From the IMG/VR virus record IMGVR_UViG_2529292911_000011: DNA of 19,414 nucleotides; one strand, written 5' to 3'. This stretch comes from a virus. Taxonomy: Duplodnaviria > Heunggongvirae > Uroviricota > Caudoviricetes. The notes beneath the pieces were generated by a model, which was given only the letters and a program-made list of their open reading frames with translations, made no database searches and was not told where the DNA came from. Shown here piece by piece: positions 1,356 to 18,768 of the stretch. The position numbers and the translations under genes are program-made. Every line of letters begins with the position of its first letter. Positions within the stretch are counted from its first letter, which is position 1.

Positions 1356-1887
1356 ATGAAAAAACTACCACCAAATCTCTTTTTCCGACTTAATAGAGCA
1401 GCAAATTTATTAGAAATAGAAGTCGATGATCTTCTACTTATGGGAGTATCAGGCTCTATATTTTTGAGCACAATAATTCACCAGTATGAAGGCGTACTCT
1501 ATCAAGCGGGAAACTTGCCACCAGACCACGGCAGCAAAGACATAGAAAACTTATTATTTGGTTCTATTATTTCTACTAGAGAAGATACCGAAAGATATCT
1601 AAATGAAGGTGTTTTCGATGGTATGAAGTGCTTAGCAAGTGGATTATGGCACGTTCCTAGTGATTTCATTGCTTCCCTTGCAGGGGTTAAGAGAGCCCCT
1701 GACATTCCACTCATATTCTCACCAGCATATATAAAAAAAGAACTAGATATCACATCAGGACGTTACTTTTTCTACGATTTTCGCGAACATGATACCACCG
1801 TATCGTCTGTGGAAGATTTGTATATATCAAGACCGTGGGTTGAATATATAGCTGAAAGCATGGATAAAAATCAGCCAATACCCAGCA
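1356..1887 (+). pseudogene. 5' fragment (177 codons) of an AT-rich gene of unknown function, interrupted by IS10
   Basis: ATG at 1356 with upstream 'aaaaggtga'. The reading frame runs into the IS10 inside end at 1888 and terminates at 1922 within IS-derived sequence. Removing the IS and one copy of the target duplication joins it in frame to 3226-3539, giving a 281-codon ORF. Markedly AT-rich by eye relative to the integrase. Confidence 0.7.
1879..1887. repeat. 9-bp target site duplication (TACCCAGCA), left copy
   Basis: Identical 9-mer directly abuts both IS10 termini (1879-1887 and 3217-3225); 9 bp is the duplication length IS10 makes. Confidence 0.9.
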
Positions 1888-3216
1888 CTGAGAGATCCCC
1901 TCATAATTTCCCCAAAGCGTAACCATGTGTGAATAAATTTTGAGCTAGTAGGGTTGCAGCCACGAGTAAGTCTTCCCTTGTTATTGTGTAGCCAGAATGC
2001 CGCAAAACTTCCATGCCTAAGCGAACTGTTGAGAGTACGTTTCGATTTCTGACTGTGTTAGCCTGGAAGTGCTTGTCCCAACCTTGTTTCTGAGCATGAA
2101 CGCCCGCAAGCCAACATGTTAGTTGAAGCATCAGGGCGATTAGCAGCATGATATCAAAACGCTCTGAGCTGCTCGTTCGGCTATGGCGTAGGCCTAGTCC
2201 GTAGGCAGGACTTTTCAAGTCTCGGAAGGTTTCTTCAATCTGCATTCGCTTCGAATAGATATTAACAAGTTGTTTGGGTGTTCGAATTTCAACAGGTAAG
2301 TTAGTTGCTAGAACCCATGGCTCCTTTGCCGACGCTGAGTAGATTTTAGGTGACGGGTGGTGACAATGAGTCCGTGTCGAGCGCTGATTTTTTCGGCCTT
2401 TAGAGCGAGATTTATACAATAGAATTTGGCATGAGATTGGATTGCTTTTAGTCAGCCTCTTATAGCCTAAAGTCTTTGAGTGACTAGATGACATATCATG
2501 TAAGTTGCTGATAGGTTTCCAGTTTTCCGCTCCTAGGTCTGCATATTGTACTTTTCCTCTTACTCGACTTAACCAGTACCAACCCAGCTTCTCAACGGAT
2601 TTATACCATGGCACTTTAAAGCCAGCATCACTGACAATGAGCGGTGTGGTGTTACTCGGTAGAATGCTCGCAAGGTCGGCTAGAAATTGGTCATGAGCTT
2701 TCTTTGAACATTGCTCTGAAAGCGGGAACGCTTTCTCATAAAGAGTAACAGAACGACCGTGTAGTGCGACTGAAGCTCGCAATACCATAAGTCGTTTTTG
2801 CTCACGAATATCAGACCAGTCAACAAGTACAATGGGCATCGTATTGCCCGAACAGATAAAGCTAGCATGCCAACGGTATACAGCGAGTCGCTCTTTGTGG
2901 AGGTGACGATTACCTAACAATCGGTCGATTCGTTTGATGTTATGTTTTGTTCTCGCTTTGGTTGGCAGGTTACGGCCAAGTTCGGTAAGAGTGAGAGTTT
3001 TACAGTCAAGTAATGCGTGGCAAGCCAACGTTAAGCTGTTGAGTCGTTTTAAGTGTAATTCGGGGCAGAATTGGTAAAGAGAGTCGTGTAAAATATCGAG
3101 TTCGCACATCTTGTTGTCTGATTATTGATTTTTCGCGAAACCATTTGATCATATGACAAGATGTGTATCCACCTTAACTTAATGATTTTTACCAAAATCA
3201 TTAGGGGATTCATCAG
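1888..3216 (-). mobile_element. IS10 insertion sequence, complete copy (1329 bp)
   Basis: Inside end 'CTGAGAGATCCCCTCATAATTTCCCC' at 1888; outside end (reverse complement of 'CTGATGAATCCCCTAATGATTTTGGTAAAAATCATTAAG') ending at 3216; full-length transposase between them; flanked by a 9-bp direct repeat. Length is exactly 1329 bp. Single copy, no tet genes, so not a composite Tn10. Confidence 0.95.
1901..3109 (-). CDS. IS10 transposase
   Basis: 402-aa ORF 'MCELDILHDSLYQFCPELHLKRLNSLTLACHALL...' that I recognise as the IS10/Tn10 (IS4-family) transposase; lies entirely inside the IS10 ends. Confidence 0.95.
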   Translation of the reverse strand: MCELDILHDSLYQFCPELHLKRLNSLTLACHALLDCKTLTLTELGRNLPTKARTKHNIKRIDRLLGNRHLHKERLAVYRWHASFICSGNTMPIVLVDWSDIREQKRLMVLRASVALHGRSVTLYEKAFPLSEQCSKKAHDQFLADLASILPSNTTPLIVSDAGFKVPWYKSVEKLGWYWLSRVRGKVQYADLGAENWKPISNLHDMSSSHSKTLGYKRLTKSNPISCQILLYKSRSKGRKNQRSTRTHCHHPSPKIYSASAKEPWVLATNLPVEIRTPKQLVNIYSKRMQIEETFRDLKSPAYGLGLRHSRTSSSERFDIMLLIALMLQLTCWLAGVHAQKQGWDKHFQANTVRNRNVLSTVRLGMEVLRHSGYTITREDLLVAATLLAQNLFTHGYALGKL

Positions 3217-3225
3217 TACCCAGCA
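3217..3225. repeat. 9-bp target site duplication (TACCCAGCA), right copy
   Basis: Exact copy of 1879-1887, immediately after the IS10 outside end. Confidence 0.9.
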
Positions 3226-3539
3226 TACTCCATTTGGGTTCACACGATCTTTATGAAAAGGAATTTAAAAACATAGAGCATGGAAATAGAGCACGACATA
3301 GCCTGAACCGTGAGAATAGCATTATGGCGTTGATTTATGTGAAACGGCACTATCCGGAAGAGTGCAAAGGGAAAAACGGGAAAGAAACCAACGAAGCGTG
3401 GGCAAACGCTACGATAGACCACTGGCCACATGTGGGTGGCGATTATGATGAACCATCTACAGATTATTTAAAGAAGATCATATCTGACATGGACAGATTG
3501 CCGGAAAAACGTACCACGGCAGGAAAGAAGAAATCATGA
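3226..3539 (+). pseudogene. 3' fragment of the IS10-interrupted gene
   Basis: Continues the 1356 frame once IS10 plus one duplication copy are removed (junction reads ...QPIPS|ILHLGSHDLYEKEFK...); stop at 3537-3539. The ORF track shows it as an orphan 101-aa ORF from 3234. Confidence 0.65.
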
Positions 3540-6994: not shown

Positions 6995-7589
6995 TTTCTT
7001 AACTTTCCATGCAGAAGCAACGCCTGACGGCGTAAACATCATGTACCGCAGCAACGATGGCATGACAGAACGCGTTGAGACCGTCTCATATATTGATGCC
7101 GTAAATCGTCTGGATGCCGGGGATTATGACGATAAACCAGATGAAGGCATGTTTATACATCTCGCTATTGCCAGTGGCGGCAACCAGGGATATTTCGATT
7201 ACACATCACAGCATCACGTGATTATGTGGCGCTGGCTGATAGCAACAGCATTCATCAATGAAATGAGAAAGGAAAACGGCACCGTCAGCATTATTGATGA
7301 CAGTGGCAATCATTCCGTGGTTTCTGTTTATTCCAATGGCATCGTCGCCATGCCGCTGTATCCAGTAGCAGAGCGCCTCGCTATGGCAAACAACATTGAG
7401 GGCGCAATGATCGAGAAATATGGTGTTGATGTCGGAACAAAGAATGCCATCATTTTTTACAGCAACATGTTCGATGTCGAACAGGGAACACTCACTTCGT
7501 TTGGGCGAGAAGTGCTTGCCGATCTTCACAACAGCTTTATTGCCGAACTAAACGAAAACGGCATCCCAGAAGCACCAGTGACGCACTAA
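6987..7589 (+). CDS. Hypothetical protein (200 aa) immediately upstream of the primase
   Basis: ATG 6987 with SD 'AGGCGAGG' (6974-6981), overlapping the upstream stop (ATGAATAA). The track ORF from 6882 is probably an N-terminal over-extension. No family recognised. Confidence 0.6.
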   Translation: MNNFLTFHAEATPDGVNIMYRSNDGMTERVETVSYIDAVNRLDAGDYDDKPDEGMFIHLAIASGGNQGYFDYTSQHHVIMWRWLIATAFINEMRKENGTVSIIDDSGNHSVVSVYSNGIVAMPLYPVAERLAMANNIEGAMIEKYGVDVGTKNAIIFYSNMFDVEQGTLTSFGREVLADLHNSFIAELNENGIPEAPVTH

Positions 7590-7601
7590 ACGGGGGCCAG
7601 A

Positions 7602-10358
7602 ATGCGAAACATTGATCTTATCCGTCAGGTTATCAGTGCGTCTGAAAACAACTGGCCTCATGTGCTGGGCTGCCTGAACATAAATGTCCCTGACTCTCCG
7701 CGCCGTCATGCTCCCTGCCCTGCATGTGGGGGCAAAGATCGATTCCGGTTCGATGACAACGGGCGCGGTAGCTTCATCTGTAATCAGTGCGGCGCTGGTG
7801 ATGGGCTGGATTTAATTAAACGCGTAAATAACTGCGACACAACAGAGGCGGCGCTTCTTGCCGCTGATGTTCTGGGTATTGATTACCGGACAACGGAAAC
7901 ACCAGAAGCCACCAGCCAGAAACGGGAACAACTGGAAACCGAGCGCCAGCGACGCGAACAGGAGCGCCTGAAAAGGGCAGAGAAGGACGAACAACAAAGA
8001 CGGGATACGTTTTCCCGTCAGTTTGATGACATGCGCAGAAAGGCTGTAAACGGCAAATCTGATTATCTGGTTGCGAAAGGGGTAGGTGATTTTACATTCC
8101 CCGTGTTGCCCGATGGATCTCTGTTGCTGGCGCTGGTGGATAAATCCGGCGCAGTCACAGCAGCACAGACTATTACCTCACATGGTGAAAAAAGACTCCT
8201 GACAGGTTCAGCAAAGCGAGGGGCATATCACGCCATAAACGCACCAGAAACAACACAGAGCATCTTAATCGCAGAAGGGCTGGCAACGGCATTATCTGCC
8301 CATTTAATTCGTCCAGAGGCGCTGACAGTGGCGGCGATTGATGCCGGGAACCTGTTATATGTCGCCCAGGTACTGCGGGATAAATTTCCTTCAGCACAAA
8401 TCATCATTGCTGCGGATAACGACCACAGCGAAGGAAGACAAAACACGGGGAGAATAGCAGCAGAAAAAGCAGCTTTATCTGTTTCTGGATGGGTGGCATT
8501 ACCCCCGACAGATCACAAAGCAGACTGGAATGATTACCACCAAAAACACGGCATTAAATGCGCCACAGAAGCGTTCAATAAGTCAATGTACCAACCACAG
8601 GGTAATGGCGTGAAACAGGAGCCACAGACCATTGAGGGAAGCGATTTTAAGGTTATGGATACCGACCCACTGAAACCAAGAATAGAAAGCCGCGAGGATG
8701 GTATTTATTGGGTATCTCCGAGAGCTGACAGCCAGAGTGGAGAAATCATCAATAACGAAAGCTGGTTATGTTCTCCGTTAAGCGTTATCGGTACTGGCAG
8801 AGACGATAAAGACCAGTATCTCATTCTTCGCTGGCTGTCGTTTGGTTCTGAAACGCCGACAACCGCTGCCATTCCACTGGCTGATATTGGTGAACGTGAA
8901 GGATGGCGCACACTTAAAGCTGGTGGGGTAAATGTCACGACCAAAAGCAGCCTCAGAGCAATACTGGCAGACTGGCTACAACGCAGTGGCTCTCGTGAAT
9001 TGTGGCGTGTTGCTCATGCCACTGGCTGGCAATGCGGAGCGTACATCATGCCTGATGGGGAAATCATCGGAACACCTGAAAATCCTGTGCTGTTCAGCGG
9101 GAGAAGCTCAGCCGCAGCCGGATATACCGTCTCAGGGAGCGCGAAAAGCTGGCGTGATAACGTGGCGCGTCTGGCCTTTGGTAACTATTCAATGATGACC
9201 GGGATCGGCGCAGCACTGGCAGCGCCATTGATTGGGCTGGTGGGCGCTGACGGGTTCGGCATTCATTTCTATGAGCAGTCGAGCGCGGGTAAGACCACCA
9301 CGGCAAACGTGGCGAGCAGCTTATACGGCAACCCTGATTTACTGCGGCTGACGTGGTACGGAACCGCGCTGGGGCTGGCAAATGAGGCCGCCGCCCACAA
9401 TGACGGATTAATGCCGCTTGATGAAGTTGGTCAGGGCGCTGATCCTGTCAGCGTTTCACAGTCTGCCTATGCGTTATTTAACGGTGTAGGGAAACTGCAA
9501 GGCGCTAAAGATGGTGGAAACCGTGATCTAAAACGCTGGCGTACAGTGGCAATCAGCACCGGAGAAATGGATTTAGAAACATTTATCGCTACTTCTGGGC
9601 GAAAAACCAAAGCCGGGCAACTGGTGCGACTGCTGAATATTCCGTTGAGTAAAGCAGTACGCTTTCACGATTACCAGAACGGAAAACAGCACGCAGACGC
9701 ACTGAAAGACGCTTACCAGCATCACCACGGCGCAGCCGGGCGTGAGTGGATTAAATGGCTGGCAGACCACCAGCAACAGGCTATTAAAACTGTTCGTGAT
9801 TGCGAAAGCAGATGGAGAAGCCTGATCCCATCCGATTATGGTGAGCAGGTTCACCGTGTAGCCGCGCGATTTGCCATTCTGGAGGCAGCATTGCTGTTAG
9901 GCGAAGTTGTAACAGGCTGGGATGCTCAGACATGCCGTGATGCGATACAGCACAGCTATAACGCATGGTTGCGCGAGTTCGGCACAGGTAACAAAGAACA
10001 TCAGCAGATTATTGAACAAACGGAGGCATTTCTTAATGCCTATGGGCTTAGCCGTTTTGCACCATTTCCATACAGCCCGGCAGATTTGCCCATCAAAGAT
10101 TTAGCCGGATACCGTCAGCGTGGAGAACATGACGAAAGCCCAATGATTTTCTACACATTCCCGGCCACATTTGAAAAGGAGATCGCATGTGGTTTCAACG
10201 CAAAACAGTTTGCTGAAGTGTTGAAAAAAGCCGGGATGCTAACCCCACCAAACAGCGGTCGTGGATACCAAAGAAAATCACCACGTATTCAGGGACGACA
10301 AATAAACGTTTATGTACTCAATTACCAGCCAGGAGATTATAACTCATCTGAAGAATGA
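7602..10358 (+). CDS. DNA primase-helicase (N-terminal zinc ribbon + TOPRIM + C-terminal P-loop ATPase), P4 alpha / PICI Pri-Rep type
   Basis: 918 aa. Cys cluster 'CPACGG...CNQCG' near the N-terminus; TOPRIM-like 'LIAEGLATALS' and 'IIAADNDHSEG'; Walker A-like 'YEQSSAGKTT'. Iteron cluster lies immediately downstream. Confidence 0.9.
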   Translation: MRNIDLIRQVISASENNWPHVLGCLNINVPDSPRRHAPCPACGGKDRFRFDDNGRGSFICNQCGAGDGLDLIKRVNNCDTTEAALLAADVLGIDYRTTETPEATSQKREQLETERQRREQERLKRAEKDEQQRRDTFSRQFDDMRRKAVNGKSDYLVAKGVGDFTFPVLPDGSLLLALVDKSGAVTAAQTITSHGEKRLLTGSAKRGAYHAINAPETTQSILIAEGLATALSAHLIRPEALTVAAIDAGNLLYVAQVLRDKFPSAQIIIAADNDHSEGRQNTGRIAAEKAALSVSGWVALPPTDHKADWNDYHQKHGIKCATEAFNKSMYQPQGNGVKQEPQTIEGSDFKVMDTDPLKPRIESREDGIYWVSPRADSQSGEIINNESWLCSPLSVIGTGRDDKDQYLILRWLSFGSETPTTAAIPLADIGEREGWRTLKAGGVNVTTKSSLRAILADWLQRSGSRELWRVAHATGWQCGAYIMPDGEIIGTPENPVLFSGRSSAAAGYTVSGSAKSWRDNVARLAFGNYSMMTGIGAALAAPLIGLVGADGFGIHFYEQSSAGKTTTANVASSLYGNPDLLRLTWYGTALGLANEAAAHNDGLMPLDEVGQGADPVSVSQSAYALFNGVGKLQGAKDGGNRDLKRWRTVAISTGEMDLETFIATSGRKTKAGQLVRLLNIPLSKAVRFHDYQNGKQHADALKDAYQHHHGAAGREWIKWLADHQQQAIKTVRDCESRWRSLIPSDYGEQVHRVAARFAILEAALLLGEVVTGWDAQTCRDAIQHSYNAWLREFGTGNKEHQQIIEQTEAFLNAYGLSRFAPFPYSPADLPIKDLAGYRQRGEHDESPMIFYTFPATFEKEIACGFNAKQFAEVLKKAGMLTPPNSGRGYQRKSPRIQGRQINVYVLNYQPGDYNSSEE

Positions 10359-10370
10359 GCTTCTTCATGT

Positions 10371-10484
10371 GCGTAGAAAAGGTGTTGGTTCAGTTGGTTC
10401 AGTTGGTTCAATTTGCAAAGAGTATTGTTTTGTAAGGATTTTATTCTTTTTATTGAACCAACACTGAACCAACAACACGGTATT
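10371..10484 (+). repeat. Iteron cluster A (putative origin of replication)
   Basis: Three tandem 9-bp 'GTTGGTTCA' repeats (10374-10400), a ~40-bp AT-rich spacer, then three inverted 'TGAACCAAC' copies (10444-10452, 10455-10463, 10476-10484). Sits directly 3' of the primase-helicase. Confidence 0.8.
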
Positions 10485-10813
10485 TTGAACCAACACAATG
10501 TGACTGAATTGATGCGCTCAACACCTGGCTGGCATCAGAGAGTGTTTTACGAGACTTTCGTAAAATCCTGTGTACAAGGGCGTGACGTTTTTGAAAGTGA
10601 GCACTACGAAATTTTCGTAGTTCAGAAAACAGCCCCTGAGAAGTTGTTATGCCTGTTCAGCAAACCATCCGCATAGCTGATCGCGAATCAAATTACCAAT
10701 GGAGCCAGAAGCAAGGGCAGAACTGAAAAGCGCCTGCCGTGAAGAGTAATGCGACACCATAAATATAGTTTTTAGAGTCCATAAAAAACCTGTCAAAACC
10801 TGACACACAGAAC

Positions 10814-10848
10814 GATGCCACCAGCTACTGAGCGGTGGCATTTTTTTG
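10814..10848 (+). terminator. Rho-independent terminator
   Basis: Stem 'TGCCACC' (10816-10822) / 'GGTGGCA' (10834-10840) with an 11-nt loop, followed by TTTTTTT (10841-10847). Confidence 0.7.
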
Positions 10849-10909
10849 TGCTGTTTGTTTCATATTTTGCAATTACGATGATGAATATTGCGATTTGTGA
10901 AACTATAAT

Positions 10910-10929
10910 AACTGTTGTTTTATACAGTT
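10910..10929 (+). promoter_or_regulatory. LexA-box-like site (putative SOS operator) in the cargo operon promoter region
   Basis: 'AACTGTTGTTTTATACAGTT' = CTGT-N8-ACAG with AT-rich centre; 15/20 identical to the box at 18749-18768, including both flanks. Lies between a 'TATAAT' hexamer (10904-10909) and the SD 'AAGGGGG' of the ORF at 10943. Confidence 0.45.
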
Positions 10930-10942
10930 CTAAGGGGGCGTT

Positions 10943-11116
10943 ATGGCTATTTCAGTAAAGCCGGTATTGATAAGTGAGAAGCAAATGGAAGCGATAAAGA
11001 AAATTCAGGAGGAGCAGCGTAAAAAATCAGAGGTAGGAGTTGCGCCAACGATCCACGAAATTGCTCGGGGATTAATGGATAAGGCGCTGGCTTACACTTT
11101 AACTGGACGTGGGTAA
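10943..11116 (+). CDS. Small protein (57 aa), possible ribbon-helix-helix DNA-binding protein
   Basis: Not in the ORF track (under 60 aa). ATG 10943 with SD 'AAGGGGG' (10932-10938). 'KPVLISEKQMEAIKKIQEE...GVAPTIHEIARGLMDKAL' has a strand-helix-loop-helix layout compatible with an Arc/CopG-like fold. Ends 4 nt before the next ATG. Confidence 0.45.
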   Translation: MAISVKPVLISEKQMEAIKKIQEEQRKKSEVGVAPTIHEIARGLMDKALAYTLTGRG

Positions 11117-11120
11117 ATCA

Positions 11121-12587
11121 ATGGCTACGTGGCAACAGGGTATTAATTCTGGTGGTTTTCTGGCTGGCATCGGTACGCAAAATGAGAATGCGCCAAAGGC
11201 AAGCGACATTAACGCAACGCTTGGTCTGATTCGCGAAAACAATGAACTGGCTCGATCAGGTGCAAATAACGTTGCTCTGACAGGTCTTCGTGGTCTGGCT
11301 GGAGTTGCTGATATTTATAAGCAGCAGCAACAGCAGGAGCGTAAAGCGGCATTCCAGAAAGGTTATGCAGATGCTTATGCGTCCGGTGACAGGGAGCAGA
11401 TGCGTAATCTTATTACAGCATTCCCAGAAGAGTTTGAGGAAGTCCGTAAAGGGATGAGTTATGTCGATGATGCTCAAAGGGATGATTATGGCAATCTGGC
11501 GCTCAAAGCACAGGTAGCCTCATCGCTTGGTCCGGGCGCATTTGGCAGGTTCATGATGGATAATGAGCAGGAGATGCGTCGTTTAGGTATCCCTCCAGAA
11601 ACTATTGCTGAAATGCAGGTTAATGACCCGCAGGGCTTCCAGCATTTCGCAGGTAATCTGGCGCTGTTTTCTCTCGGTCATGAGAAGTATTTCGATATCA
11701 AAGATCAAATGGAAAGTCGGGATATTGAGCGTGGCAAGTTGGCAGAGACAATCCGCAGCAATCAGGCTGGTGAAGCACTTCAGGCGAGAGGGCAGGATAT
11801 TAGCCGAGCAAATGCGTTAACGTCAGCATATGCACCAACAGCAGCAATGCAGAATTACAATCAGTACGCGCAAATGTTAAAGGCTGATCCAGAGGGGGCG
11901 GCGGCATTTGCGGCAGCGGCTGGAATTAATACAAACACCAAAAAATTAATGAGTGTTAGAGAAAACGATGATGGCACTGTCACAAAATACTACACAGACG
12001 GAAGTGAAGAGCAGGGAAAACTAAACCAGCCAATATCTGGAGATGGGTTTCGTCCAATAGCTTTGCCAACAGCCCAAAAGATCATGGAAAAGTCGCCAGA
12101 AGGGGCTAAAAAAGCTGCTGGATTTGCATACAGGGTTAGGGATGCTCTTGATTCAATAGATACACTGAAAGACCAGCTTAGCCCACAGCGAGTGGCGATC
12201 ATTAATAATGCTTTGGGTAATGGGACGCTGGCTAACTTAACGCTCAGCCCAGCAGAGCAGCAATACGTTGTTAATGCTAATGACGCAATAATGGCAATAC
12301 TCCGTCAGGAAACAGGGGCAGCTATCGCACCTGCTGAAATGTCAAAATATTATCAAATGTATTTCCCTCAGCCTGGCGACTCCACAAAAACCATTGATAC
12401 CAAGCGCCGGAAGATGGAAAACCAGTTCAATTCGCTGAAAGCTGCTTCTGGTCGAACTTATGATGCTTTGCGGGTTATTTCAGCAGTTGACAGAGGAACT
12501 GCTTCTTCGTCGCAGACATTGCCGCAATCTGAGCAGGTATCACAGCCAGCAGCCAGCAGTAACTTTTCTTCACTATGGGGTGATTAA
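11121..12587 (+). CDS. Hypothetical protein (488 aa), Gln/Ala-rich, function unknown
   Basis: ATG 11121 (the track's GTG at 11109 is an alternative start). Poly-Q stretch 'KQQQQQERK', Ala-rich tracts; no catalytic motif recognised. Stop overlaps the start of the next gene (TAATG). Confidence 0.8.
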   Translation: MATWQQGINSGGFLAGIGTQNENAPKASDINATLGLIRENNELARSGANNVALTGLRGLAGVADIYKQQQQQERKAAFQKGYADAYASGDREQMRNLITAFPEEFEEVRKGMSYVDDAQRDDYGNLALKAQVASSLGPGAFGRFMMDNEQEMRRLGIPPETIAEMQVNDPQGFQHFAGNLALFSLGHEKYFDIKDQMESRDIERGKLAETIRSNQAGEALQARGQDISRANALTSAYAPTAAMQNYNQYAQMLKADPEGAAAFAAAAGINTNTKKLMSVRENDDGTVTKYYTDGSEEQGKLNQPISGDGFRPIALPTAQKIMEKSPEGAKKAAGFAYRVRDALDSIDTLKDQLSPQRVAIINNALGNGTLANLTLSPAEQQYVVNANDAIMAILRQETGAAIAPAEMSKYYQMYFPQPGDSTKTIDTKRRKMENQFNSLKAASGRTYDALRVISAVDRGTASSSQTLPQSEQVSQPAASSNFSSLWGD

Positions 12588-14692
12588 TGGCTAAAGCATG
12601 GAAAGATGTTATCGCCTCTCCACAGTATCAGGCGTTAGCACCAGAACAAAAAGCGCAGGCTCAGGAGCAATACTTCAATGAAGTCGTTGCCCCGCAAGCC
12701 GGAGAAAGTGTAGAGCAGGCTAAGCAGGCTTTTTATGCTGCCTATCCACTACCATCAACGAATGAAATAGACCGATCCCAATCAGCAACTCAAAATATTC
12801 AACATACATCATCTGATAATTCTATTGCGTCAGGGTATGCAAAGTTAGCTACTCAGCAAAGAGAGGGGCTTGAGCGTTCAGCAGAACAGGGAGCCAGTCT
12901 TGGGGCTGCGATGCGCGATGCTATAACAGGCGAAAGCCGAATGACTCCAGAGATGGAGAGACTGCAAAATGTCGACCTTGCCCCAGAGTTAACCTCACTC
13001 AGCATGGATGCTCTAAAAGCTCGATGGTCTCAACTTTTCGGCTCTGACGCATCTCAGGAAAAGATTCTTCAGAGCATGGGAGCGAAATTAAGGCAGGATG
13101 AGAAGGGTAACACTATCGTTTCCCTGCCATCCGGTGATTATGCTCTGAACAAGCCGGGTTTATCGCCGCAAGACGTGGCATCGTTTCTGGCTAATGCGCT
13201 GGCGTTTACACCAGCGGGCAGGGCCGGAACGGTGCTGGGGGCCATAGGGAAATCAGCAGCTACAGATTTAGCACTACAGGGAGCCACCAGCCTCGCTGGT
13301 GGAGAAGATATTGATCCGTTACAAACGGTAATTTCTGCTGGCATTGGTGGTATTGGTAAGGGGCTGGAAAATACAGCGAGTGCGGTTTCGAGGGCTGTTC
13401 GTGGTGATATGTCGCCTGAAGCAAAGGCTGCTGTCGACTTTGCATCGGAAAGAAATCTGCCGTTAATGACCAGTGACATGCTGAAAGATAAAACCTTTAT
13501 GCAGAGTCAGGCTCAGACATTAGGCGAAAGAGTTCCTTTTTTTGGAACCGGTAAGAATCGGCTGAATCAACAACAAGCACGAGAAAATTTAGTCAGAACA
13601 TTTAGCGATGGTCTGGGTGGCATTTCTGATAAACAGCTTTATGAATCTGCGACTAAAGGGCAACAAAAATTCATTGAGGCAGCAGGAAAGCGATATAACC
13701 GCATAATTGACGCTATGGGGGATACCCCTGTCGATCTCTCAAACACGGTAAAAGCTATCGACAATCAGATTGCCGTGTTAAGCCGCCCGGGCAAATCTCA
13801 GGATAGAGCCGCGGTAAAAGTCTTGCAGCAATTTAAAGACGATATCACCAGCGGACCAAATGACCTGCGTCTGGCGAGGGAAAACAGAACCGATCTTCGA
13901 AAGCGATTTATGGCGTCATCTGACACTGTTGATAAAGATACGCTCCAGAAAGCCAGCGATATTATCTACAAGGCATATACGGCGGATATGAAAAAAGCCG
14001 TAGCCAAAAATCTTGGAGCAGACGAAGCTATTAATATGGCAAGGGTTGATCGCTCATGGTCTAAATTCAATGACATGATGGGAAGAACGCGCGTTCAAAA
14101 GGCAATAGCCAGCGGCAAGGCCACGCCTGAGGATGTAACAAAACTTGTTTTTAGCCAAAGCCCATCAGAACGTTCTCAGCTTTACAGGCTTCTGGATGAC
14201 AATGGTAGGCAAAACGCACGAGCAGCCATAGTTCAGAATGCTGTAGATAAGGCGACTGATCCGTCTGGAAATATCAGTGTTGAGAAGTTTATTAATGCGT
14301 TACACCGGAACAGGAAGCAATCAGCAACTTTCTTTAAAGGCATACATGGAAAGGAACTGGACGGCGTTATTAAATACCTCAACGATACAAGACACGCGGC
14401 AAAAGCGAACGTTCAAAACTTAAATGGTCAGCAGCTTTATGGATTGTTAGTTGGTGGTGGCATCATAAACGCAGCAGTATTAGCGGGGATGCTAAAAACG
14501 GCTGCGTTTGTTGTTCCTGCTGCTGGTGCCGTAGGCGGAGCAGCGAAGGCATACGAAAGCCCTGTTATACGAAATGCCTTGTTACGTCTGGCAAATACGC
14601 CAAAAGGTAGCACAGCATATGACAGAGCGATCAGTACGGTCACACAATCACTGACCACAGCAGCACAAGCATCGCAAAAGGAAGCTCAATAA
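12587..14692 (+). CDS. Hypothetical protein (701 aa), helical low-complexity with a C-terminal Gly/Ala-rich hydrophobic segment, function unknown
   Basis: Translationally coupled to the upstream gene. Residues ~617-656 'LYGLLVGGGIINAAVLAGMLKTAAFVVPAAGAVGGAAKAY' (nt ~14435-14554) look like a glycine-zipper/transmembrane segment. No nucleotide-binding or nuclease motif recognised. Confidence 0.85.
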   Translation: MAKAWKDVIASPQYQALAPEQKAQAQEQYFNEVVAPQAGESVEQAKQAFYAAYPLPSTNEIDRSQSATQNIQHTSSDNSIASGYAKLATQQREGLERSAEQGASLGAAMRDAITGESRMTPEMERLQNVDLAPELTSLSMDALKARWSQLFGSDASQEKILQSMGAKLRQDEKGNTIVSLPSGDYALNKPGLSPQDVASFLANALAFTPAGRAGTVLGAIGKSAATDLALQGATSLAGGEDIDPLQTVISAGIGGIGKGLENTASAVSRAVRGDMSPEAKAAVDFASERNLPLMTSDMLKDKTFMQSQAQTLGERVPFFGTGKNRLNQQQARENLVRTFSDGLGGISDKQLYESATKGQQKFIEAAGKRYNRIIDAMGDTPVDLSNTVKAIDNQIAVLSRPGKSQDRAAVKVLQQFKDDITSGPNDLRLARENRTDLRKRFMASSDTVDKDTLQKASDIIYKAYTADMKKAVAKNLGADEAINMARVDRSWSKFNDMMGRTRVQKAIASGKATPEDVTKLVFSQSPSERSQLYRLLDDNGRQNARAAIVQNAVDKATDPSGNISVEKFINALHRNRKQSATFFKGIHGKELDGVIKYLNDTRHAAKANVQNLNGQQLYGLLVGGGIINAAVLAGMLKTAAFVVPAAGAVGGAAKAYESPVIRNALLRLANTPKGSTAYDRAISTVTQSLTTAAQASQKEAQ

Positions 14693-14753: not shown

Positions 14754-15152
14754 TTAACACTTGCCTTTAACATTGCCGACAAATGAGCCTGTAAATGAGC
14801 CTATATCAGATCGACTAATTGTTCGTGTATGGATCACTTTTCCGTCATTTGAGATTGCCCATGTGACAAGCGTCAGTTGACCATCTCGATAGCTTCTTCC
14901 CATCATGGCATTCGGAGATAGCGGGTAATAATCAATACCTCCACCTATACCATCTTTTGCCAAGATAAGATCCGCCTTCTCTTTACTTATTACCAAATGA
15001 AAGGTATCTGGTATAGATGATAACTTATAGTTATACCCATCTGAACTTGAGGCTTCTTGTCCTTTCAGATCACCAATAATCCAGCATTCAGCGTTCGCTC
15101 CAAAAGAAGCAAATAATAAACCGGAGACAACCAATCGCTTCAATTGATTCAC
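14754..15152 (-). CDS. Small secreted protein with Sec signal peptide (133-aa precursor)
   Basis: GTG start at 15152 with strong SD 'AAGGGAGGG' 5 nt upstream on the minus strand; N-terminus 'MNQLKRLVVSGLLFASFGANA|ECW' is a classic signal peptide with an AxA site. The track's upstream extension to 15278 would bury the signal peptide and is rejected. AT-rich. Mature protein has Cys near both ends. Confidence 0.65.
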   Translation of the reverse strand: MNQLKRLVVSGLLFASFGANAECWIIGDLKGQEASSSDGYNYKLSSIPDTFHLVISKEKADLILAKDGIGGGIDYYPLSPNAMMGRSYRDGQLTLVTWAISNDGKVIHTRTISRSDIGSFTGSFVGNVKGKC

Positions 15153-15291
15153 ACCAACCCTCCCTTTAGCGTTGTTTAGAATGGCAATCATCATATATCC
15201 AAGACATGGCATTTGGTACATAGCTTGGGTCGGGATTTCAAATCCGATCCCCGTTGATGGGGCCGTTACAGTGCGCACATATCCGCTTTAT

Positions 15292-17046: not shown

Positions 17047-17334
17047 ATGATAAGGGACAGGAAAGCTGAAGAGCTGGAGTTAAAAGGGCTATGCCGGAGA
17101 GCTGCCACACGATGGGCAGAAGTCATGACGCTGGCAGATGGCGATAAAGAACGTGAACATGCAGCAAACAGACGCTCTGAATGTATCCGTAGGGCGGCAC
17201 GCCCACCAGCAACTACAGACAGATTCGGAGACTTAAGACAGGCAGTTAAGCGAACGCATTCAGCTCTTGGTATGGATGAGGAAGCGAGAGGGTACTTCAG
17301 GCGTTATCGCGATAAAGATTGCCAGCTACGATAA
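17047..17334 (+). CDS. Hypothetical basic protein (95 aa)
   Basis: ATG 17047 with SD 'GAGAGG'; Arg-rich; immediately downstream of iteron cluster B. No family recognised. Confidence 0.55.
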   Translation: MIRDRKAEELELKGLCRRAATRWAEVMTLADGDKEREHAANRRSECIRRAARPPATTDRFGDLRQAVKRTHSALGMDEEARGYFRRYRDKDCQLR

Positions 17335-17503: not shown

Positions 17504-18268
17504 ATGACTACAACGGTATATGATCGTGTTAACGCCTTAGTAGCGACCGACTCTAGGTGGTCTGTTGATCTTAGCCCACATGGCTACGATGGTCATATCC
17601 TGTATATTGACGATACCGGCTTCGGTAAGCTAGCTCCACGAAATGATTTTGTTATGCTTTTAGCCGGTGATGGTCTTTTGATTCAGTTATGGAAGCATTG
17701 GTGGCGAGGAGACCTATCTCAACAAGAACCACCAGTTGTTTTACCTACTGGTCAATCGGTAAATTTACATATTGTGAAAAAATCAACTAATGAAGTGATT
17801 TTTGATAAAGGTCAAAAATTAGTTGTAAAAAATAACGAAACGGAAGAACTGTTCGCTGTCTTTACAGGCTCAGGATGCGGTGCTGCTGCGCAAAACTGGA
17901 TGTATAGCCATTGCGCAAGATCAGCAATTGAAGAATCTAAAAAGCTTGACCCATACACTGGCGGCACTGTACGTTTTTTAGACTTCAGGACTAACGCATC
18001 ATTAGTAGAAGACTCTGTTTCAACCATTAGCGAAGTAAACGAAGCTCTATTGCAGAGGGGGCTGATTATGGATACCAAAAACCCACATTCACCACACGTT
18101 TCTATCAGTGCACAAGAAGTTGCTGAAGTTCGTCAAATGCTGGTTAGTGGTTCAATTACCCCATGTGCACCAGTAGGCCAAAGAACCCAAGATTGGGATG
18201 ACAACTCCAAATTGCGTTTAGCAAATGCTATTCAGCGTATTCGTGAAGAAGAAGCACAAATGCGATAA
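17504..18268 (+). CDS. Hypothetical protein (254 aa), AT-rich, function unknown
   Basis: Long ORF in a relatively AT-rich segment, followed by a strong hairpin terminator. No motif recognised. Confidence 0.75.
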   Translation: MTTTVYDRVNALVATDSRWSVDLSPHGYDGHILYIDDTGFGKLAPRNDFVMLLAGDGLLIQLWKHWWRGDLSQQEPPVVLPTGQSVNLHIVKKSTNEVIFDKGQKLVVKNNETEELFAVFTGSGCGAAAQNWMYSHCARSAIEESKKLDPYTGGTVRFLDFRTNASLVEDSVSTISEVNEALLQRGLIMDTKNPHSPHVSISAQEVAEVRQMLVSGSITPCAPVGQRTQDWDDNSKLRLANAIQRIREEEAQMR

Positions 18269-18748: not shown

Positions 18749-18768
18749 AACTGTATATAAATACAGTT
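18749..18768 (+). promoter_or_regulatory. LexA box (SOS operator)
   Basis: 'AACTGTATATAAATACAGTT' is a perfect CTGT-N8-ACAG palindrome with AT-rich centre, about 45 bp upstream of the start of the downstream ORF. It matches the dinD SOS box as I remember it. Confidence 0.8.

Follow-up and report, generated by a model that had tools for sequence, protein, structure and literature searches.

The window examined here is a 19,414-nucleotide (nt) stretch of viral DNA (IMG/VR virus record IMGVR_UViG_2529292911_000011) which, judged by its genes, is an EcCIMP1-like phage-inducible chromosomal island (PICI) of Escherichia coli. Three genes on its plus strand are arranged as one operon. From their homologies they are a conserved small leader gene (10943-11116; an open reading frame of 57 amino acids, aa) and the genes for two P22-type ejection proteins: a gp20-type protein (11121-12587; 488 aa from the ATG, 492 aa from a GTG at 11109) and a gp16-type ejection or DNA transfer protein (12587-14692; 701 aa). 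We read the region 10904-14692, with a probability of about 0.5, as a helper-exploitation operon: the pair would be SOS-induced and loaded into the particles of the helper phage, giving them a different injection specificity.

Profile searches clearly identified the two large proteins. The 488-aa protein matches PF16928 (Inj_translocase) with an E-value of 6e-84 and 281 bits against a cut-off of 29.7. The domain lies at aa 12-228 and covers profile positions 1-217 of 218. The protein also matches PHROG 917 over aa 1-488 (E 2.7e-143) and is 55% identical to P22 gp20 over aa 1-238. The 701-aa protein has no match among Pfam or NCBIfam models. It matches PHROG 770, 'DNA transfer protein', over aa 19-700 (E 4.5e-161). 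Its identity is 67% with the protein in the gp16 position of Lederbergvirus N7 and 30% with P22 gp16 over 482 aa (E 7e-50). PDB sequence searches with both proteins returned nothing. Identical genes in RefSeq are labeled 'phage DNA ejection protein' and 'P22-gp16 family'. In the gp16-type protein, aa 617-655 (nt 14435-14569) form a hydrophobic stretch rich in Gly and Ala (Kyte-Doolittle 19-residue average 1.8), and sequence and hydropathy analysis of the gp20-type protein found neither a signal peptide nor a hydrophobic segment. This pattern agrees with a periplasmic gp20 and an inner-membrane gp16, as published (PMC10461980).

The architecture of the pair is similar to that present in the P22-like phages (Lederbergvirus). 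The homology is full-length, the order of gp20-type and then gp16-type gene is that of N7, Kapi1, and P22, and stop and start codons overlap in the same way. In the phages the gp20 N-terminal domain is conserved, the gp20 C-terminal half and gp16 are mosaic, and a convergent moron or sieA slot lies downstream; all of this is also seen in the island. DNA similarity to P22-like phages begins at about 11111, the start of gp20. The setting is different. In the phages the pair belongs to the late operon and follows genes 14 and 7, whereas in the island it stands behind a satellite-specific leader and a LexA-type promoter, in an element without capsid, portal, tail, or lysis genes. The third ejection protein, gp7, is missing from the window cassette.

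An earlier reading made from the sequence alone had described these genes as an unassignable novel accessory system, whose two large proteins held no assignable motif. Its observation that they are Gln/Ala-rich is correct (Ala about 14%, Gln 7-8%). However, both are clearly homologous to ejection proteins of helper-type phage. The sequence-only reading had itself named ejection-protein homology as the finding that would count against it, and the novel-system claim is thus refuted. Its fallback idea of ejection or pilot proteins, virion-associated or membrane-active, agrees with the homology to gp20 and gp16. Only the island position, which elsewhere holds Abi, RnlAB, and AAA_15/21 genes, speaks for a novel system of unknown type, accessory or defensive, that is unrelated to virion proteins. 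PADLOC returned no model match for the three operon proteins or their neighbors, which leaves a defence-system reading unsupported, and we give it practically no credence.

The three genes are tightly packed, as had been noticed from the letters. The leader stop and the gp20-type ATG are separated by 4 nt (ATCA), and the gp20-type stop and the gp16-type start overlap as TAATG at 12585-12589. A hairpin with a T-run at 10824-10849 on the plus strand (terminator scan; inverted repeat I1) resembles a terminator and closes the upstream replication region. The new promoter region proposed to follow the primase terminator is indeed found there, together with the TATAAT and the LexA-box-like palindrome, and both elements are conserved. 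The −10 hexamer TATAAT (10904-10909) is invariant in all 16 aligned loci and in 11/11 Escherichia loci. It is followed by a LexA operator-like 20-mer, AACTGTTGTTTTATACAGTT (10910-10929), which covers the predicted transcription start. The core of this 20-mer, CTGTTGTTTTATACAG (10912-10927), is a perfect CTGT-N8-ACAG LexA core and starts 2 nt after TATAAT.

The window of 19.4 kb has two perfect CTGT-N8-ACAG cores, where chance alone would give 0.26. The other copy (18751-18766) is the operator of the flanking SOS gene dinD and serves as an internal positive control; the full 20-mer, AACTGTATATAAATACAGTT, lies at 18749-18768, 30 nt upstream of the dinD start. We scored the window with a weight matrix built from 19 E. 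coli LexA sites known from the literature, with dinD excluded. By this matrix, the operon box scores 18.3 bits and is second in the window after dinD (24.3 bits). It outscores 8 of the 19 training sites, and one in 200 shuffled windows reached 18.3 bits. A third LexA-like 20-mer, TGCTGGATTTGCATACAGGG, lies inside the gp20-like coding sequence at 12116-12135; it scores 16.8 bits with the same matrix and could be due to chance. The promoter was missed by a generic sigma-70 scan, owing to its weak −35 element, and is called from conservation instead.

The conservation extends far beyond E. coli. Blocks of the form TTTCA...TGCAAT/GAAA are kept in 16 loci from about 12 genera (alignment A2). The shared order is two such blocks, TATAAT, two bases, CTGT, and then the leader gene, and it was seen in Escherichia, Serratia, Erwinia, Pantoea, Lonsdalea, Chimaeribacter, Rahnella, Raoultella, and Klebsiella. 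In the window, the blocks are represented on the plus strand by the conserved motif TTTCATATTTTGCAAT (10858-10873) and an imperfect inverted copy of it, ATTGCGATTTGTGAAAC (10887-10903); from their position, both are candidate operator sites. The pair of TTTCA-N5/6-TGCAAT-like motifs is inverted in the window and in Serratia and direct in Klebsiella and Erwinia. A GATC-containing block, ACGATCAAAT, is present in the promoter region of many other genera (alignment A2). The perfect LexA core is found in Escherichia, Serratia marcescens/nevei, Erwinia persicina, Lonsdalea, and two Pantoea. Across these five genera CTGT and ACAG are fixed and the center is variable, and the box is identical in 11/11 Escherichia loci, whatever cargo follows. 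We infer from these sequences that the window operon is under LexA control.

The leader gene is always the first gene of the operon. Its protein family has 45 homologues, all enterobacterial, and a scan of one genome per species added more loci. The motif GVAPTIHxIARGLMDKAL is invariant (alignment A1), and dN/dS between island copies is 0.07-0.17. No tblastn match was found among 50,697 phage records. By this comparison the leader family appears to be satellite-specific, and the promoter and leader seem to have no phage counterpart. The product had been called 'RHH-like' (ribbon-helix-helix). An AlphaFold2 model (pLDDT 77) shows coil at residues 1-11 and helices at 12-28 and 37-53. The modeled topology, an extended N-terminus and two helices, is compatible with that guess and is not diagnostic of it. 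Searches of Pfam, PHROGs, NCBIfam, and, with Foldseek, the PDB gave no match, and alignment with Arc/Mnt by hhalign gave a probability of 0.3%. The leader protein is possibly a DNA-binding regulator, and it is a candidate binder of the upstream TTTCA-N5/6-TGCAAT-like motifs.

The leader and promoter are conserved in about 12 enterobacterial genera, and the genes behind them appear to be nearly always of one class, namely virion DNA-delivery or tail parts. The window in E. coli has gp20 and gp16. EcCIMP1 and two further loci (L014, L031) have gp14, gp7, gp20, and gp16, and Serratia has gp20 with an SLT-type gp16. In Erwinia, Pantoea, Chimaeribacter, and Lonsdalea the leader is followed by a 108-aa protein and a tape measure protein of 584-1136 aa. 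Klebsiella carries a tape measure protein with a transglycosylase domain and a Dit-like (distal tail) protein; Rahnella, a baseplate hub and a small terminase; Raoultella, a tape-measure-like protein and small terminase-like proteins. The leader-bearing loci have PICI backbones and lack capsid and portal genes. That leader and promoter precede virion or tail parts across genera suggests that the operon supplies virion parts. One locus, in E. coli PC6 (L032), has no virion genes behind the leader; it has only a 223-aa protein (7266-7937) with a HEAGH metalloprotease-like motif, for which no family match was found. The tape-measure cassettes are always preceded by a protein of 108-109 aa belonging to PHROG 19131 (L010, L016-L020, L022; about 10159-10488), which occupies the place expected for a tail assembly chaperone.

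The island lies between yicC and dinD, and identical islands are present at the same place in other E. coli. The window begins with the integrase gene (1-1260) and ends with dinD (18800 onward). A Pfam search of its open reading frames identified int, AlpA, AntA, Ash, and a primase with Zn-ribbon, Toprim, and DUF927 domains, which ends at 10358. Neither this search nor the RefSeq annotation of identical islands revealed capsid, tail-fibre, or lysis genes. The element thus has what defines a PICI by gene content: int, AlpA, a primase-replicase with an adjacent origin, a length of about 10-20 kb, and no capsid, tail-fibre, or lysis genes. Origin-like iterons follow the primase gene at 10384-10496 (repeat families D1/D2, pairs I3-I9), where GTTGGTTCA occurs three times directly and three times inverted; copies are spaced at 9 bp, and the reverse complements lie about 60 bp downstream. 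The sequence-only reading was accurate in calling the element a satellite island, given its EcCIMP1-like gene set without capsid or lysis genes, and in placing the module downstream of an origin.

EcCIMP1 is the PICI of E. coli MP1, and its helper is the P22-like phage vB_EcoP_Kapi1 (Pick, Stadel, Raivio, ISME J 2025, PMC11773190). Its excision and transduction occur only with Kapi1 and require alpA, and Kapi1 titres after induction are unchanged by the island (PMC11773190). The EcCIMP1 backbone is that of the window: int, AlpA, a 143-aa protein, AntA, DUF4222, Ash, small open reading frames, Toprim-DUF927 primase, and PerC. The ejection-protein operon is in the same place, the TATAAT and LexA box are identical, and the leader protein is 87% identical. 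The two islands differ in integration site (tRNA-Thr, proA/yagU for EcCIMP1; yicC/dinD here) and in cassette. EcCIMP1 has the full 14-7-20-16 set, whereas the window has only 20-16 of the N7-like type; EcCIMP1 gp20 is 26% identical to that of the window, and its gp16 is a 906-aa SLT-type protein. The authors of that study noted three genes resembling 'DNA transfer' and DUF2824 proteins, guessed at a role in packaging, and reported that structural genes were absent (PMC11773190). The LexA box and the cross-genus pattern are unmentioned in their paper (PMC11773190).

The relation of EcCIMP1 to its proven helper is informative. The gp14 proteins of EcCIMP1 and Kapi1 are 83% identical, but gp20 and gp16 are only 26% and 24% identical, respectively. 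We considered that the cassette might duplicate the helper's genes and rejected this for EcCIMP1 and Kapi1 on account of these low identities. Sequence comparison points to the EcCIMP1 pair as an alternative to the helper's pair and not a copy of it.

We surveyed 5426 complete E. coli genomes. The leader is present in 499 (about 9%) and the window-type cassette in 315, some of which have a 1087-bp gp14-gp7 insert in it; most of these 315 carry the cassette intact. Cassettes are exchanged behind the same leader. Strain B2C has an identical leader at the same dinD site and a Kapi1-like pair (gp20 75%, gp16 41% identical to those of Kapi1). Between near-identical dinD-site islands the mosaic joint falls at gp20 codon about 200-212, and the exchanged unit is thus the C-terminal half of gp20 with gp16. 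Between island copies, dN/dS is 0.18-0.31 for gp20 and 0.09-0.17 for gp16, and the copies are under purifying selection. The low dN/dS may in part be a legacy of earlier residence in phages, and the argument from selection is weaker for it.

The proposed course of events follows the genetics of P22. In a resting cell, LexA would sit on the operator overlapping the transcription start and keep the operon off. DNA damage would induce P22-like prophages and remove LexA at the same time, and the leader protein and the cognate gp20 and gp16 would be made early and in quantity, alongside or ahead of the late proteins of the helper. The island pair would be packed into helper procapsids, with or in place of the helper's own pair. 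At adsorption the pair would be ejected and, with the interchangeable gp7 of the helper, build a conduit for the island's DNA; gp20 would lie in the periplasm and gp16 at the inner membrane.

Several steps of this scheme have precedents. Foreign ejection proteins assemble into P22 virions; gp7 can be exchanged, whereas gp20 and gp16 each need the cognate partner in order to function (PMC10461980). The window cassette, gp20 and gp16 without gp7, matches this minimal cognate unit. Escape from SieA, an inner-membrane exclusion protein, maps to the C-terminal parts of gp20 and gp16; the ejection-protein set of HK620 is partly SieA-resistant; and transducing particles are also blocked by SieA (PMC10461980). 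Since SieA blocks transducing particles too, a helper-borne satellite would meet the helper's injection exclusion whenever it reaches a helper lysogen, the kind of recipient from which it stands to gain most. The gain for the island would be an injection specificity unlike that of the helper, most likely an escape from SieA-type exclusion in helper lysogens, or else an altered handling of the incoming DNA. On the latter point, tdx-1 is a mutation reported to affect gp16, with a possible effect on the circularisation of transduced DNA (PMC10461980). By analogy, an island-specific gp16 could also affect the establishment of incoming DNA.

A number of observations weigh against this scheme. LexA control is probably not universal across the leader family because a box shorter by 1 bp, CTGTATAAATATCAGG (CTG-N9-CAG), is found in L007-L009, L012, L013, L015, L016, and L020-L023, and these N9 boxes in several genera score only 5-9 bits despite conserved surroundings. 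No small terminase or pac function is recognisable in the window. Transduction of EcCIMP1 by Kapi1 is low, its authors assigned these genes no function, and a Kapi1-like prophage is present in only 2 of 21 EcCIMP1-carrying strains (PMC11773190). The presence of two non-cognate pairs in the same particle might impair function instead of improving it. About two thirds of the cassette has a counterpart, with nucleotide identity of about 93%, in a genuine P22-like prophage of E. coli HS13-1. Across the whole gp20 coding sequence the two have diverged widely (dS about 0.8), so the stretches in common are mosaic. By this comparison gp20 and gp16 are not satellite-specific and belong to a pool common with phages. 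Decayed examples are also found: gp16 is annotated as a pseudogene in TB354 (L001, 13738-15553), the ETEC1731 cassette (H1/H83), otherwise 100% identical to the window, carries IS1203, and the tape measure gene of Serratia silvae is truncated to 210 aa (L021, 10494-11126).

The match to the HS13-1 prophage and the decayed copies are also what one would expect if the cassette were a non-functional relic, that is, phage DNA recombined from a P22-like prophage and carried along. The start of phage homology at the gp20 start codon is in keeping with this, as is the absence from the window of gp14 and gp7, which are present in sister islands. Against a relic stand the dN/dS of 0.09-0.31 between island copies and the long intact frames in hundreds of genomes. 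A relic would also hardly come with a dedicated promoter and leader across about 12 genera and with cargo of one class in nearly every case, and the genes that are kept form the minimal functional unit of P22 genetics (PMC10461980). We regard a relic as quite unlikely.

The low identity between the EcCIMP1 and Kapi1 pairs can be read in another way, as assembly poisoning. Here the divergent pair would be co-assembled into P22-like particles of the helper or a competitor, which would then inject poorly and burden the population less, in the manner of systems for tail-assembly interference (Tai). Non-cognate gp16 or gp20 does assemble into P22 virions and yields non-infectious particles (PMC10461980), assembly-blocking defences such as Tai are known on PICIs and prophages (PMC11364771), and SOS timing would presumably place the proteins in the cell before the late genes of the helper are expressed. 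However, the unchanged Kapi1 titres with EcCIMP1 (PMC11773190) do not agree with poisoning. Poisoned particles would also carry island DNA, to the detriment of the island's own transfer, and the operon of relatives carries small terminase genes, which are transfer functions. The lack of a PADLOC match counts against it as well. We find poisoning unlikely, and favor loading of the pair to the benefit of island transfer.

The gene that follows gp16 is of interest because of its position, as the slot directly after gp16 is the place of sieA in P22. In the window it holds a convergent small gene (14754-15191, minus strand; translation, PHROG 2651, tblastn) whose product has a signal-peptide-like N-terminus and is about 30% identical to the 'repressor protection protein' of phage 434 records and to Sf6 gene 38. 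We considered it as a SieA homologue and rejected this because it resembles the phage 434 protein. Slot genes differ among near-identical islands (L027/L028, 5363-5977; L031, 6449-6838; L033, 9738-10133) and have in common an N-terminal stretch of about 30 aa, MIAILNNAKGRVGV. In TCM3e1/SLK172 the slot encodes a 204-aa multi-pass membrane protein that is weakly SieA-like (blastp E 5e-6; PHROG 7745 E 4e-4), and the slot proteins of B2C and 20KM2222 are other small membrane proteins. The link between slot gene and operon is positional; it fits an arms race between ejection proteins and exclusion and proves nothing.

The slot also bears on cell-resident exclusion, in which gp20 and gp16, made at a low level or after SOS induction, would jam the conduit of an incoming P22-like phage and confer superinfection immunity. 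EcCIMP1 does add to the resistance of Kapi1 lysogens to Kapi1 superinfection, and the responsible gene is unmapped (PMC11773190). The membrane-type hydrophobic segment of the gp16-type protein would suit such a role. However, the gp20-type protein has no signal peptide or hydrophobic segment with which to reach the periplasm, and LexA repression would silence the genes in just the cells in need of protection. Better candidates are found in the adjacent slot, with its SieA-like and other membrane proteins. This explanation is very unlikely in our view.

Some other features of the island were noted. It is inserted directly beside the SOS gene dinD. An insertion element (stretch 1356-3300; DDE_Tnp_1 transposase at 1901-3109, minus strand) interrupts the gene beside the integrase. 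Sister islands have an intact 846-nt gene at this position, and the stretch 1356-3300 makes up most of the roughly 7% of the window that is missing there. A PerC-family regulator (17047-17334) is accompanied by a 254-aa protein (17504-18268) with a weak match to PHROG 1040, 'peptidase HslV family'. The PerC homologue of EcCIMP1 is reported to repress LEE1 in Citrobacter.

The proposed function can be compared with three known systems. [quoted passage not shown] It serves packaging and morphogenesis, and small terminase genes also occur in relatives of the window operon. There is no sequence relationship between the two, and the cargo here consists of DNA-delivery proteins and not of capsid-size or terminase factors. 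Capsid-forming PICIs (cf-PICIs) also encode part of the virion (PMC10085698). They make capsid, portal, connector, and terminase and steal tails, whereas the leader family makes only DNA-delivery proteins that are internal and ejected (or a tape measure or hub) and would steal the rest. Tai, too, consists of island-borne genes acting on virion assembly of P22-like and other phages (PMC11364771). However, Tai is reported to target helper tail proteins (PMC11364771), and the proteins described here are full-length homologues of virion components.

In the literature on PICIs with tape measure or ejection proteins or with a P22 helper, only EcCIMP1 was directly relevant; coverage was incomplete, and this is absence of evidence only. 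Within the literature searched, the cross-genus association of leader and promoter with virion cargo, the island-borne pair in a SieA setting, and the purifying selection on it appear to be unreported. Satellites are thought to be nearly free of tail and virion genes, and the standard finder, SatelliteFinder, forbids tail genes in PICIs and rejects candidates that have them (PMC10085698). The rule 'no tail/structural genes' does not hold for the window, which has two ejection proteins, or for its relatives with tape measure or hub genes. This rule is operational and not biological. Because it forbids tail genes, tape-measure-bearing relatives would be filtered out and are probably hidden by such filters.

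With genes of familiar kinds in an island from a published family, the original claim of novelty falls. For annotation, the lesson is that these are ordinary ejection proteins rather than a new defence system. The interest that remains lies in a conserved operon, LexA-type in many lineages, that gives a PICI lineage exchangeable helper DNA-delivery cassettes. A broader interpretation, which we offer only tentatively, is that this lineage re-arms stolen virions with its own genome-delivery proteins, an unrecognised form of helper exploitation that involves neither capsid resizing nor redirection of packaging. Exchangeable cassettes behind one leader and an often LexA-controlled promoter would then match the helper type, with gp20 and gp16 (with or without gp14 and gp7) for P22-like podophages and a tape measure or hub in other genera. 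Satellite particles so equipped might pass SieA-type exclusion or host-factor barriers in cells that hold the helper. The very proteins on which the passage of packaged DNA across the recipient's envelope depends are encoded here by a common island family. If these proteins are used, satellites can alter the injection specificity of the particles they hijack. This would affect which strains receive the defence genes, the virulence regulator (PerC), and other cargo of the islands, and it would provide a natural, testable system for the co-evolution of SieA-type exclusion and ejection proteins.

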